A stretch of DNA of 64,000 bases from a virus, in IMG/VR virus record IMGVR_UViG_3300020473_000016, one strand, 5' to 3'. Position 1 is the first letter of the stretch, and the number at the start of each line of letters is the position of its first letter. The notes beneath the pieces are model-generated. The model had not been told where the DNA came from and did no database searches. It worked only from the letters and a program-made list of their open reading frames with translations. The position numbers and the translations under genes were made by a program. This document shows, piece by piece, positions 2,696 to 15,887 of the stretch.

Positions 2696-3761
2696 CCTCT
2701 TGCGTCTGAGTCCAGTTATCAAAACTTCCAGGATACCATAGAGCATATATCTCTTGCCGTCTAATATTTTCGGCATAACTTGACCTTTTTACTTGGTCTA
2801 ATATTGCAGCAAATTCCGCGTAAGGTTTGAAAGGTAAAGATTTAGCATATCTCCAAAAAGGAGTATCATACTTGGAACCACCTAGATAATGCCACAAAAT
2901 AAAAGTTTCAATCTTCCGCATTTGAGCATGAACCATATTATTGATTGATTGTCTCGTACCAAACTTATTAATTAAGTGGAGTGCAGTGCTTTCCGCAACA
3001 AATTTATAAAAATGTCCAGATGTAGCCTCTAATGGTTCTAAAAATGACAGCATATTACCATTGAGAATGGTACGTTCTCCTCTCCATATATTCTTTGCAA
3101 TATAATTATCAAACTTCAAATACCCATCAGGTTTTGCATTAAAAAATTTGCCGAAATTTTTTTCAGCAATTGATCGTGGCGTTATTTCACTACGGTGTAA
3201 GTAACCATAAGAAGTACTATCATGATTAGGAATAACAAACGTCCATCCATCAGGAGTAGCAATTGCTTCAGTATGTTCTAACTTAGGATCATAAGGTCCA
3301 GTTGCCAAAGAAACAGCATTAACTGGATTAGTTAATTTATGATATTCATCAAGATTACTTGGTCTACCTCTACAATCAAAGATATAATCAGCATCTATCT
3401 CTTGTTCTGGATCACTGATATTTTTCTCTATAGACTTGTATTGTTTCAAACATTGTTCCTTTAATAAGTTAGGAACATAATGAGCAGAGACTGAATGGAA
3501 ATAAAAATCGTGATATACATCTTTCTTACCCCAATTTTTATAATTTATTCCCCATTTCTTTGTTGCTTTAATATCATTATGACTCCAATTCTGATTAAGA
3601 GCACCACACATCAATGACACAACATCACATGTAGTGCCTTGACCTACCCTTTCAATAGGAACGTTAGGATCATGGTATATTTCTACCTCTTGTCCTAACA
3701 AATCATATTGCATTGCAGTAATACATCCACCTAATCCAGCACCAATTACTGCTATTTTCAT
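2691..3761 (-). CDS. Flavin-dependent (tryptophan halogenase-like) enzyme
   Basis: N-terminal GAGLGG FAD motif, GWTFVIP (WxWxIP variant) and FLEPLEATSG motif. Confidence 0.8.
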   Translation of the reverse strand: MKIAVIGAGLGGCITAMQYDLLGQEVEIYHDPNVPIERVGQGTTCDVVSLMCGALNQNWSHNDIKATKKWGINYKNWGKKDVYHDFYFHSVSAHYVPNLLKEQCLKQYKSIEKNISDPEQEIDADYIFDCRGRPSNLDEYHKLTNPVNAVSLATGPYDPKLEHTEAIATPDGWTFVIPNHDSTSYGYLHRSEITPRSIAEKNFGKFFNAKPDGYLKFDNYIAKNIWRGERTILNGNMLSFLEPLEATSGHFYKFVAESTALHLINKFGTRQSINNMVHAQMRKIETFILWHYLGGSKYDTPFWRYAKSLPFKPYAEFAAILDQVKRSSYAENIRRQEIYALWYPGSFDNWTQTQEV

Positions 3762-12221: not shown

Positions 12222-14237
12222 TTATAGAGTAGCGAGATTAAGAGCAGAAAATGTAGTTAGGAACTCTCCATGTCCAGGAGTAGGCATTGTAAAGTTAGGT
12301 GTAAAGGTTTCTCCTTTTTCACCATCACCTGTACTATAGAAATTATTAATAACCATACCACCTTCATTATTCGATAATTCAGCCATAGCAAGTGAATCAG
12401 CAAAACTACTACCAGTATTTGATTGATCACCAGTAATTGCTTGTTCTGCTTGATGCTTGTTTAATAAATCATGCCACTGTTGTGTAACAGGAACACCTTC
12501 AAACTCACTTCCAACTGGTGTATCCAACATAGCTTGAATCTGTTCAGGAGTCATCTGATCTATGACCTGCTGCATTGAAGATGCATCAAGAGTTTGTTGT
12601 TCTTCATTGTTTGCCCATGGATTCTTAATACCCATCCACTGTGGTCCAATAAAACCGTCTCCTTTTTGAGAACCCATTACATTTCTCATTGCCTCAAGAA
12701 AACCACTATTATTAATAGATTCAGCAGTATTGGAAAAGGATTCACCTACAATTGTCCTACCTTCTTCTGAAAATAAATTGGGAATTTCTATCTCATGACC
12801 AAAAAAGTCCTTAGTAAGAGTGAATACACCATCATCATCTTCACCACCAGTTACCTTTTGTACTTGGTCTATAACAGCACCGACAGTATTCGTAACAGTG
12901 TCAACAATATTTGAAGTAATGTCTGAAATACCACCTAATATCCCACCTAAAGCATCCATTCCTCCTTCAGCATTCCAAAATTGACTTAATCCAGCAGCAG
13001 CTAATTTTTTATGATCATTTCCTGCTTGTTTCCAACCTTCAACTTGCCATTTAGCTTGTTCTATTGCAAGTTTCTTACCACGACCACCACCTAAAGGTGT
13101 AACAGTATGTCTTTCTGGTCCATGTGCATTAAAGACTGCTCCAGATTCAGGTGCATCAATATCAAACATTCCACCAGTACGGAATCCTTTCTCACCACCT
13201 ATCAAATCCTTTGCTAATAAAGCAGAATCTAATCCAACTGATATTGCAGTTCCAACTCCAGGAAATGAAGATGCAACACCAGAACCTAGTTCTAATAAAG
13301 CACCACCCCAATCACCTCTCGCTAATCTTTGAGCAGCAAATATAGCACCAAGACCAGCACCAAGAAACGGAATTTTCTTAGCAAGCATCTTACCACCAAT
13401 GCTTGTTGCAGCTTTCCTAGAAAATCTCATTCCTAGTCTACTTGCTATTCTCGCACCTGTTCTTCCACCCAAAGCGGTCATGGTTCTTGTACCGATTGCT
13501 CGTAAACCACGTTTTCCAACCTGATTTGCAAGATTTTTAGTACCTATTCCCATACCTAGACGACCTGCTCTAGTTCCAGCCATCATCATTGGTAATAAAC
13601 CAGCACCTCCACCACCTCCACCACCAGAACCACCAGAAGAAGAAGCTGCACTTAATCTTTTTATTGGATCTGTAGAACTTAAATTTTTAACCTTCTCTAA
13701 ATTATTTTCTTCAGTAGTAGCTTTTGCACGATTTAAAGCTAATTGTGATAATCTTGCAGTTTCTTGATGAGCAGTAATAGCAGCCTGAGTTTGCTCTTCA
13801 ATAGCATTAACTATTTGCATAGTTACAGCAGTATTTTTATTAACTGCAACTACAACTGCTTCTAAAGTATCGCCAGTTTGGAAAAACGAATCATCTCCGA
13901 AATTACCAGTACCACCAGCAGCAGGAAATATGCCACGATTAGATGGCATTATATCAGGATTTACAGGGTTTATATCCCTTAAAGCACGACCACCAAAGAA
14001 ATTTGATCCACCACCAGCATCTACTTTTACAAATATATTGTTTACTGGTTGAGTTATAGTATTATTATCACCAACTGATACAATAGCACCACCTTTCTCT
14101 TGACCTTCCTCTTTTTCCTCACCTTTTGCAGTTACTTTATCCCACAACTTTTTACCAATCCAGTCCGTGAGCTCTCCAAAAGCTTTGCCCAAAGCATCTC
14201 CTCTGGTATCTTGGTATCCTACAGTTCCACTAGCCAT
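12222..14237 (-). CDS. Tape-measure-like protein (gp29 position)
   Basis: Helical Ala/Gly-rich protein with a glycine-zipper block (KIPFLGAGLGA..GDWGGA) and the GFRTGG..HGPE..VTPL motif common in tape-measure proteins. Confidence 0.6.
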   Translation of the reverse strand: MASGTVGYQDTRGDALGKAFGELTDWIGKKLWDKVTAKGEEKEEGQEKGGAIVSVGDNNTITQPVNNIFVKVDAGGGSNFFGGRALRDINPVNPDIMPSNRGIFPAAGGTGNFGDDSFFQTGDTLEAVVVAVNKNTAVTMQIVNAIEEQTQAAITAHQETARLSQLALNRAKATTEENNLEKVKNLSSTDPIKRLSAASSSGGSGGGGGGGAGLLPMMMAGTRAGRLGMGIGTKNLANQVGKRGLRAIGTRTMTALGGRTGARIASRLGMRFSRKAATSIGGKMLAKKIPFLGAGLGAIFAAQRLARGDWGGALLELGSGVASSFPGVGTAISVGLDSALLAKDLIGGEKGFRTGGMFDIDAPESGAVFNAHGPERHTVTPLGGGRGKKLAIEQAKWQVEGWKQAGNDHKKLAAAGLSQFWNAEGGMDALGGILGGISDITSNIVDTVTNTVGAVIDQVQKVTGGEDDDGVFTLTKDFFGHEIEIPNLFSEEGRTIVGESFSNTAESINNSGFLEAMRNVMGSQKGDGFIGPQWMGIKNPWANNEEQQTLDASSMQQVIDQMTPEQIQAMLDTPVGSEFEGVPVTQQWHDLLNKHQAEQAITGDQSNTGSSFADSLAMAELSNNEGGMVINNFYSTGDGEKGETFTPNFTMPTPGHGEFLTTFSALNLATL

Positions 14238-14430
14238 TTTTTTGTTTCTGTTGTTGTGCTTTTCTTGCTGCTTTCACTTGTTCCATATATTGCATTACAA
14301 GAGTTATATAAACTTGCCTTTCCCAAGGCATCATATTCTCAAGTTCACTCAAGCTATATTTATGATGATGCATCAAAGCAAAGTTGGTTTTATAATATCC
14401 CTCCAACGATGTATGAAAGAGGGCTATCCG
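14230..14430 (-). CDS. gp51: gp51-like module, probably translated as a -1 frameshift extension of gp26
   Basis: Frame reads RIALFHTSLEGYYKTNFALMHHHKYSLSELENMMPWERQVYITLVMQ...KNG*. First ATG is only at 14373, with no SD at normal spacing. Frame is entered at T TTT TTC (14436-14430). Confidence 0.75.
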   Translation of the reverse strand, partial: RIALFHTSLEGYYKTNFALMHHHKYSLSELENMMPWERQVYITLVMQYMEQVKAARKAQQQKQKNG

Positions 14431-15137
14431 AAAAAATTCTGTAGCCCGTTGATTGTAAACTCAGATTCTACACCAGTATTAGGATTTTTAACCTTAAAAC
14501 TATGCTCTACTCTAGGACATGTCTCAAAGAATTTCTGTAATGCACCAAATTGCTTTGTAGTCATTCCATCCACAAATTCCTTAAATTCCTGATGACTAGT
14601 AGTAGAAGAATCAAAAACTTCTTCTCCATCATAGATTTGATCTATACAAGATGCTATAACTTCAGTTATAGTGTCTTGTTCTGGTGCTTGTCCAATTATA
14701 GACCCTGAAATAAACTGGTTATATCCAGGATATTTCATAATAAGACCCATAGTATCAGTAAGTTCAACTTTCTTACTATGACCTTCTGGTCTTATAACTC
14801 CAACATTATTCAAATCTAATTTATAAGATACCTTAGTCTCATTATCATCTTTACATGTTAATACTAAGTCTACTACCTCTCCAACAGAAACAGCACGAAT
14901 ATTTAGAAAAATTAGCTCTAAGTCAAATAGAGTTAATTCATCTATCTTTATTCTCGTCTGTATACAAGATTTTAATAAATTTCTAACAGCAGATTCTATC
15001 TGCTTATCATCTCCAGAATCCAAAGCCAGTAAAAGCAATTTCTCCTCTTTTACTACAAATGGACGATATTTAATCTTTTTGCCTGTAGATGGTACTACCA
15101 ACTCATATGTCGGTAAAACCGTTTTTGGTAATGCCAT
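14424..15137 (-). CDS. gp26: Baseplate hub assembly protein gp26
   Basis: LPTYELVVPSTGKKIKYRPFVVKEEKLLL, FDLELIFLNIRAVSVGE, KFFETCP, and C-terminal GLQNFFG. Confidence 0.9.
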   Translation of the reverse strand: MALPKTVLPTYELVVPSTGKKIKYRPFVVKEEKLLLLALDSGDDKQIESAVRNLLKSCIQTRIKIDELTLFDLELIFLNIRAVSVGEVVDLVLTCKDDNETKVSYKLDLNNVGVIRPEGHSKKVELTDTMGLIMKYPGYNQFISGSIIGQAPEQDTITEVIASCIDQIYDGEEVFDSSTTSHQEFKEFVDGMTTKQFGALQKFFETCPRVEHSFKVKNPNTGVESEFTINGLQNFFG

Positions 15138-15242: not shown

Positions 15243-15887
15243 CTATGACGCAAATCCAGCAAGTTGTGTGATGTCGTTGTTGACCGTGTAATGACGCATG
15301 TATGCAAATTGTGCAGTGACAGAAGCAATTTGAGTTGATCCAAACTGCATTGGTACAGCATCAATTGCATATGGGTAAGCTTTCTCTAAAATATATGTTA
15401 TTGCAGATCTTGGTCTTTGACTTCTTGCTAATTCTGCCTTACTAATCGCAATATCACACATATAATAATCTGGGTAATTTAGTCTAACTGTTCTATTCTT
15501 GCGTTTATATGAACCATAAGCAGCCTCCATAGGTTGATTTTTAGTGTTAAATGACATACCATCATATGATCCGTTAAAGATATAATCATTCCAAGCATTT
15601 AAAAACTTCAACATACCTAAATTAGCATCAAGTTGAAATCCTAACTGAATTTCCGTAAACACACGAGTATGTGCATATGGAACTGATCCAGAACCAACAT
15701 ACATTCCATTAATATTACCTTGAGCAGTGTTAATGTTTGGCAACTGTGCTTCACTACACATATGCTCTGTCATTACATCCAAATCTGGAATCTTAACAGG
15801 AGGATTTAAAAACTTAACTTTAAAGTTGTTTGTAGTTGCCATACCGCCATTCTTGGCGATAAGTTCAATAAAATTCTTTACGGACAC
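15243..15887 (-). CDS. Tail tube initiator-like protein (gp54/gp19 fold)
   Basis: GGMATTNNFKVKF, MCSEAQLP, YILEKAYP..I...Q......VTAQFAY tube-fold pattern. T4-like synteny opposite gp4. Confidence 0.6.
   Translation of the reverse strand: MSVKNFIELIAKNGGMATTNNFKVKFLNPPVKIPDLDVMTEHMCSEAQLPNINTAQGNINGMYVGSGSVPYAHTRVFTEIQLGFQLDANLGMLKFLNAWNDYIFNGSYDGMSFNTKNQPMEAAYGSYKRKNRTVRLNYPDYYMCDIAISKAELARSQRPRSAITYILEKAYPYAIDAVPMQFGSTQIASVTAQFAYMRHYTVNNDITQLAGFAS

Follow-up and report, generated by a model that had tools for sequence, protein, structure and literature searches.

A probable lambda G/GT-type −1 frameshift at the gp26-gp51 locus of an uncultured T4-like phage

Long-tailed phages need a tail assembly chaperone (TAC) in two forms. 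How T4-like cyanophages, which rank with the ocean's most abundant viruses, come by both of them is the question raised by a locus in the IMG/VR virus record IMGVR_UViG_3300020473_000016. We analysed a stretch of 64,000 nucleotides (nt) of this record, referred to below as the window. In it the gene for gp26 is followed by a short module that resembles the C-terminal part of T4 gp51 and lies in the −1 reading frame; all features of this gp26-gp51 locus are on the minus strand. The phage is an uncultured relative, its gp26 being at most 66% identical to that of any isolate. We find it very probable that the locus uses −1 ribosomal frameshifting of the lambda G/GT type, which would explain how such phages make the two chaperone forms; the separate genes 26 and 51 of T4 would then be a derived solution to the same problem.

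The gp26 gene (14424-15137) encodes a protein of 237 amino acids (aa) in the zero frame. Its 3′-end reads CAG AAT TTT TTC GGA TAG, so that the protein ends with NFFG and translation stops at TAG 14426-14424. The heptamer T TTT TTC (14430-14436) contained in this end has the X XXY YYZ form of a slippery site in the gp26 frame. A TGA (14461-14463) shuts the −1 frame upstream of the heptamer; downstream the frame is open for 66 codons (14233-14430), from CGG at 14430 to a TAG at 14230-14232, the encoded module starting with RIALFHTSLEGYYK. Nineteen of these codons precede the first ATG of the frame (14371-14373), which is the start chosen for the short ‘gp51’ coding sequence in records such as Syn1. 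The predicted products are gp26 itself (237 aa) and a fusion of gp26 with the gp51 module (302 aa). A preliminary description of the window had proposed the frameshift and had placed the gp26 end, the heptamer, the TGA and the 66 open codons at these positions. All of its coordinates were confirmed on the minus strand, and its two product lengths hold as predictions.

Profile searches connected both parts of the locus with T4 gp26 and gp51. The window gp26 matches PF12322 (T4_baseplate) with E 5e-68 and 229.5 bits (cut-off 24.5), residues 9-236 aligning with positions 2-218 of the 219-position profile, and it matches T4 gp26 in BLASTP (E 7e-10). Within the profile phrog_150, gp26 occupies positions 5-232 and the −1 open reading frame (ORF) carries on with positions 229-278. 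A second profile, phrog_634 (gp51, ‘baseplate hub assembly catalyst’), is matched by the −1 ORF with E 6.8e-28, residues 6-74 of the stop-to-stop ORF aligning with positions 52-120 of 121. This match begins at the sixth residue, well ahead of the ATG.

The two T4 proteins, gp26 (208 aa) and gp51 (249 aa), both carry PF12322, which covers residues 1-206 of the former and 1-201 of the latter, while phrog_150 covers residues 3-248 of gp51. Residues 198-244 of T4 gp51 align with the window −1 ORF across the FF|R junction (DVFKLLV... and EFFRIAL..., respectively; E 3e-4). Judged from these alignments, T4 gp51 consists of a full gp26-like domain followed by the module and is colinear with the predicted 302-aa fusion, in line with the preliminary description. 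Full-length BLASTP of T4 gp51 with the window gp26 was insignificant, the link between the two being made by profiles only. The uninterrupted gp51 form is present in about 1375 phage records of T4 type. T4 has two divergent genes with neither an overlap nor a T-run (GTG TTT in gp51; in gp26 the Phe-Phe pair is kept and written TTC TTT), and other T4-type phages with a separate gp51 likewise have no T-run, whereas here there is one gene and, in all probability, recoding.

With gp26 sequences of five lineages as queries, we gathered 267 loci from IMG/VR and GenBank. In 256 of them the end of gp26 was present together with 200 nt or more of downstream sequence, and these were scanned with a hidden Markov model of the module. 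All 248 loci that have the split arrangement gave a match in the −1 frame, and no locus gave one in the 0 or +1 frame. The eight loci with no −1 frame match comprised seven of T4 type and one in-frame fusion (see below). The pattern of sequence variation also changes frame at the heptamer: among codon positions, variation peaks at zero-frame position 3 upstream of it and at −1 frame position 3 from 7 nt downstream of it, and this coding-phase switch covers the stretch ahead of any ATG. The module alignment is conserved from its first residue, including the 19 codons that precede ATG 14373 in the window. The first −1 codon specifies Arg in 157 of 188 distinct junctions, because G follows TTC, and the overlapping residue of the gp26 frame drifts among G, A, V and E.

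The slippery heptamer is retained by nearly all relatives. An in-frame T TTT TTY was found in the overlap of gp26 and the module in 180 of 182 distinct junctions and in 21 of the 23 split-arrangement clusters drawn at 50% gp26 identity; the lineages that keep it include Kyanoviridae, phiM19, Cr30, a Vibrio strabovirus and a Stenotrophomonas phage. When 203 distinct sequences were anchored on the heptamer, positions 1-6 were T in 100% and position 7 was C in 95%, while flanking third positions varied freely. Loss of the heptamer in relatives and lack of amino-acid conservation in the codons ahead of the ATG were two of the outcomes that, according to the preliminary description, would contradict its proposal. 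Neither was observed, and the interpretation is supported.

Conservation of this kind might also be a coincidence, the heptamer merely spelling a conserved Phe-Phe end of gp26 under AT-rich codon bias, next to an unrelated downstream ORF. TTTTTTC is common in the AT-rich window, and TTT accounts for 73% of Phe codons in these genes, both of which speak for such an account. The codon choice at the site is nevertheless unlike that elsewhere in the same 218 gp26 ORFs: internal Phe-Phe pairs have the form T-TTT-TTY in only 11 of 228 cases (5%; TTC TTT is the commonest), compared to 183 of 183 (100%) at the terminal site. The second Phe codon of the site is TTC in 95%, against 27% TTC among Phe codons of these genes, and the codon before Phe-Phe always ends in T, whether it encodes N, S, A, D, T or H. 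T4 retains Phe-Phe without the run, and the frame and phase evidence is equally contrary. A coincidence is hardly credible in our view and is, for practical purposes, refuted by the frame, heptamer, frame-switch and codon-choice data.

The same fusion would also result if RNA polymerase added an extra U within the T-run, and the fact that the conserved element is a homopolymeric T6-T7, in which one added U gives an identical protein, fits this possibility. The run is short for such a process. Its length is 6 T in 95% of sites and 7 T in all others, never above that, lengthening by the synonymous change of TTC to TTT is avoided, and efficient slippage of bacterial polymerase needs runs of about 8-9. 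Moreover, the run keeps strictly to the X XXY YYZ phase, for which a slipping polymerase has no need, and is followed by a stable structure at the spacing typical of ribosomal frameshifting. We consider transcriptional slippage very improbable. As a separate observation, internal Phe-Phe pairs of the gp26 ORFs in the 218 related loci are mostly written TTC TTT (126 of 228), an order that splits T-runs even though Phe is preferentially encoded by TTT (73%), as if accidental slippery runs were being avoided within gp26.

The structure downstream of the heptamer is a hairpin (14399-14423) that begins 6 nt past it, in which CCCTC (14423-14419) pairs with GAGGG (14403-14399). With its ATA/TAT extension it is the minimum-energy fold of the region in the window (−11 kcal/mol), just as the preliminary description had drawn it. 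An alternative 8-bp register pairs 14421-14414 with 14405-14398. Among 171 distinct sequences, the 40 nt starting 2 nt past the heptamer had a mean folding energy of −10.0 kcal/mol, compared to −4.5 kcal/mol for other 40-nt segments of the same loci, and ranked among the best 5% of their own locus in 59% of the sequences. In the clade of the window (50 relatives) the 8-bp helix was paired in 96% of alignment cells, compared to 40–73% for slid controls. A shuffle control of pair counts gave no information, as each pair varies on one side only, and RNAalifold found no common structure across all lineages. We regard the hairpin as likely, though short of proof.

The module could also be produced with no frameshift at all, as a free peptide of about 45–66 aa, if ribosomes either initiated on it independently or terminated at the gp26 stop and then reinitiated; this is what current annotations assume. 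Some relatives have start codons suited to this: an ATG lies 4–6 codons past the heptamer in 72 of 188 distinct junctions, stop-start overlaps (TGATG or TAATG) are found in phiM19, Cr30, EniLVp02, Ps15 and L006/L007-type loci, and Vibrio phage K351 has TAATG and no T-run. Yet 104 of 188 distinct junctions, the window among them, lack an ATG for at least 17 codons, and those codons are constrained in the −1 frame. Starts further upstream are scarce as well: only 4 of 188 distinct junctions contain an ATG, GTG or TTG of the −1 frame at the heptamer or ahead of it. The −1 frame stop lies 0 to 52 codons 5′ of the heptamer in relatives and abuts it in 19 of 188 junctions.

In the window itself, the 3′ arm of the hairpin forms an element resembling a Shine-Dalgarno (SD) sequence, GGAGGG (14399-14404, minus strand), with no in-frame start at SD spacing. 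It is the sole SD-like element and lies 25 nt ahead of ATG 14373, so that we rejected it as the SD of this ATG; the statement of the preliminary description that the first ATG stands 19 codons past the slip site with no well-spaced SD was correct. TTG 14406 was rejected as a module start, since it is not conserved (CTA or CTG in relatives) and its use would lose the conserved RIALFH, and ATA was rejected for want of both precedent and SD. A free peptide would, in addition, leave unexplained the invariant phase-locked T TTT TTC, which is present even in loci that have an ATG, and the absence of the module from the +1 frame. We judge this explanation quite improbable. A near ATG is found only in a minority of relatives, and in that minority a free module is therefore possible; it cannot explain the clade of the window, nor the retention of the heptamer in loci having an ATG.

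Several observations nonetheless weigh against frameshifting as the explanation of the locus. The near ATGs just described, several of which overlap the gp26 stop as TGATG, mean that a free module could also be made in those 72 junctions. TTTTTTC is not rare in the AT-rich window (22 occurrences, compared to 16.3 ± 4.0 expected), and the heptamer signal rises above chance only by comparison with relatives, not from the window alone. Even T4 gp26 keeps Phe-Phe in its protein sequence, and part of the T-run conservation thus lies at the amino-acid level. Two split-arrangement lineages, represented by SS9 (Ackermannviridae) and Vibrio phage K351, have no T-run of any kind. The hairpin of the window is modest (z −1.1, not significant alone), and the post-heptamer fold of the window (−8.9 kcal/mol) is at the 9th percentile of its locus. 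No two-sided compensatory changes were found in the hairpin within the clade of the window, where variation is one-sided and the helix overlaps conserved codons. Finally, we infer the slip, its frequency and the roles of the two forms, the slip from sequence evidence for this phage and the relatives examined.

Variants of the locus are of interest in their own right. In Salmonella phage SS9 (L087, positions 3241-3420) an unannotated −1 frame module follows gp26 at GAG ATT TTC ATT TAA, and in Vibrio phage K351 (L090, positions 3079-3260) a −1 frame module follows gp26 at CTT TTC AAG TAAtg; these lineages may use another slip site or reinitiation. Locus L142 (positions 1201-2094 of IMGVR_UViG_3300049043_000112, 236 kb; also L264) has a single ORF of 299 aa that joins gp26 in frame to the gp51 module. 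The junction TCT TTT TGG TTA GGA ATG is the equivalent of a 2-nt deletion at the usual slip site, and the fusion is the sole gp26 homolog in a genome rated complete by CheckV. It is either a variant that makes the long form only or an assembly error at the T-run.

If frameshifting operates as proposed, most ribosomes that translate gp26 would terminate at TAG 14426-14424 and release the short chaperone form of 237 aa. In a minority, the tRNA-Phe that reads UUU in the P site and the one that reads UUC in the A site would slip one base back on U UUU UUC, probably aided by the hairpin 6 nt downstream. The slipped ribosomes would then read 66 further codons in the −1 frame to yield the 302-aa fusion of gp26 with the gp51 module. 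Such a pair would match gpG and gpGT of lambda (TAC-N and TAC-NC, respectively), as well as gp26 and gp51 of T4, which are encoded by two genes. By analogy with lambda, the short form may coat the tape-measure-like protein and the C-terminal module may recruit the tube protein.

The comparison with lambda was part of the preliminary description, and it gained support from synteny and from the predicted fold of the N-terminal domain of gp26. As in lambda, the order is tube gene, chaperone, −1 extension and tape-measure-position gene, the short and long forms share their N-terminus, and a slippery heptamer lies near the end of the short ORF. The lambda heptamer is G GGA AAG, compared to U UUU UUC here. 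There is no detectable sequence similarity to the lambda proteins; gp26 of the window is larger (237 aa) and has extra domains after the TAC-like first ~90 residues, and the downstream gene is not a demonstrable tape measure. A conserved −1 frameshift of tail assembly genes was reportedly described by Xu, Hendrix and Duda in 2004.

The gp26 structure was predicted with a local distance difference test score (pLDDT) of 86 and a template modelling score (pTM) of 0.80. Its top three VIA-align matches in an all-against-representatives search were 3fgx (Z 7.8), 2ob9 (HK97 gp13; Z 7.4) and 3klu (YqbN; Z 7.4), followed by the next at Z 4.7. The top three alignments cover 84–85 residues, all of them within residues 1-95 of the model, with Z below 8. 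2OB9, 3KLU and 3FGX (Rbstp2171) are named as the solved tail assembly chaperones (PMC9603447). Foldseek of the model against the PDB returned nothing significant (2ob9 ranked fourth, probability 0.28), and the gp26 profile found nothing below E 0.09 among PDB sequences. Taken as a model, the N-terminal domain of gp26 is supported as having a TAC-like fold, a further likeness to the lambda system. A review of the T4 tail classes gp26 and gp51 as chaperones of hub assembly and states that the finished particle contains no gp51 (PMC3004832).

Other phage genes show related signals. Phage T7 gene 10A/10B undergoes −1 frameshifting at G GUU UUC. It shares with the site described here a U-rich heptamer, re-pairing of tRNA-Phe and a location in a phage structural gene, and differs in that the product is a capsid protein and the context and stimulators are other ones. 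In passages of PMC12846349, T7 10A/10B is cited as a poly-T signal. Passages of the same paper also describe a TAC locus of Vandenendeviridae and Andersonviridae with an invariant GTTTTT, an uninterrupted −1 frame and a downstream ORF mis-annotated as a separate gene. The logic and the kind of comparative evidence are the same as here, with a poly-T motif at the 3′-end of TAC-N; the phage families and the motif are different.

The genes on either side of gp26 and the module complete the arrangement. Directly upstream of gp26 lies a gene for a 214-aa protein of the tail-tube family (15243-15887; PF23849 Phage_TTP_2, E 4.2e-70; phrog_45 tail tube), and the gene at this position is annotated ‘tail tube’ in phiM19, EniLVp02, S-H9-2 and S-SCSM2R. 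The protein has no similarity to T4 gp54. A complex prediction of the C-terminal module with this tube-family protein scored 0.00, which is no verdict and speaks neither for nor against binding.

On the other side, the ATG of a 671-aa gene (12222-14237) overlaps the module stop by 8 nt. The preliminary description had put the module immediately upstream of a tape-measure-like gene. The adjacency is real, while the label derives from position and weak leads only and is unproven. The 671-aa protein has no Pfam match and only a weak local match to T4 gp29 (E 0.024); BLASTP against T4 gp29 and the Cr30 tape measure revealed no convincing similarity, and atlas leads to tape measure protein families score below 0.9. 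At the corresponding position Cr30 has a protein that carries a tape measure annotation and matches phrog_794. The 671-aa protein has a middle part that is both Gly-rich and hydrophobic, and it matches PHROGs labelled endolysin or peptidase (phrog_34252, phrog_23178); counterparts are given as endolysin in RefSeq (P-SSM4) and as cell wall hydrolase SleB (S-SCSM2R).

In 111 of 180 distinct loci the spacing between the stop of the −1 module and the start of the tape-measure-position gene is −8, −1 or −11 nt, the two overlapping or abutting, and the zero-frame stop of gp26 is about 190 nt 5′ of that start. Frameshifted ribosomes would thus end on or within a few bases of the start, and translation of the tape-measure-position gene might be coupled to them specifically. 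We think this unlikely; if true, it would tie the output of the tape-measure-like protein to that of the long chaperone form.

The preliminary description implied that the feature was new, which was not borne out. [quoted passage not shown] Going by these citations, both inferences of the preliminary description, frameshifting in T4-like phages and the two-gene alternative of T4, were already published in 2022, and the feature is not new. If that paper does not include marine Kyanoviridae, the survey presented here would be the first quantitative evidence for the family. Our literature search found no experimental demonstration of recoding in any cyanophage.

The practical value of the finding concerns annotation. 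None of the sampled GenBank records (2010–2025) marks ribosomal slippage. In these records gp51 is either a truncated free-standing gene or omitted, in agreement with the claim of the preliminary description that a short gp51 ORF is what is usually called at this position. A gp51 homolog of Acinetobacter phage Berthold (MN709128.1, hit H91) is already annotated ‘tape measure protein assembly chaperone’, and the chaperone reading of gp51 is therefore already present in some database records.

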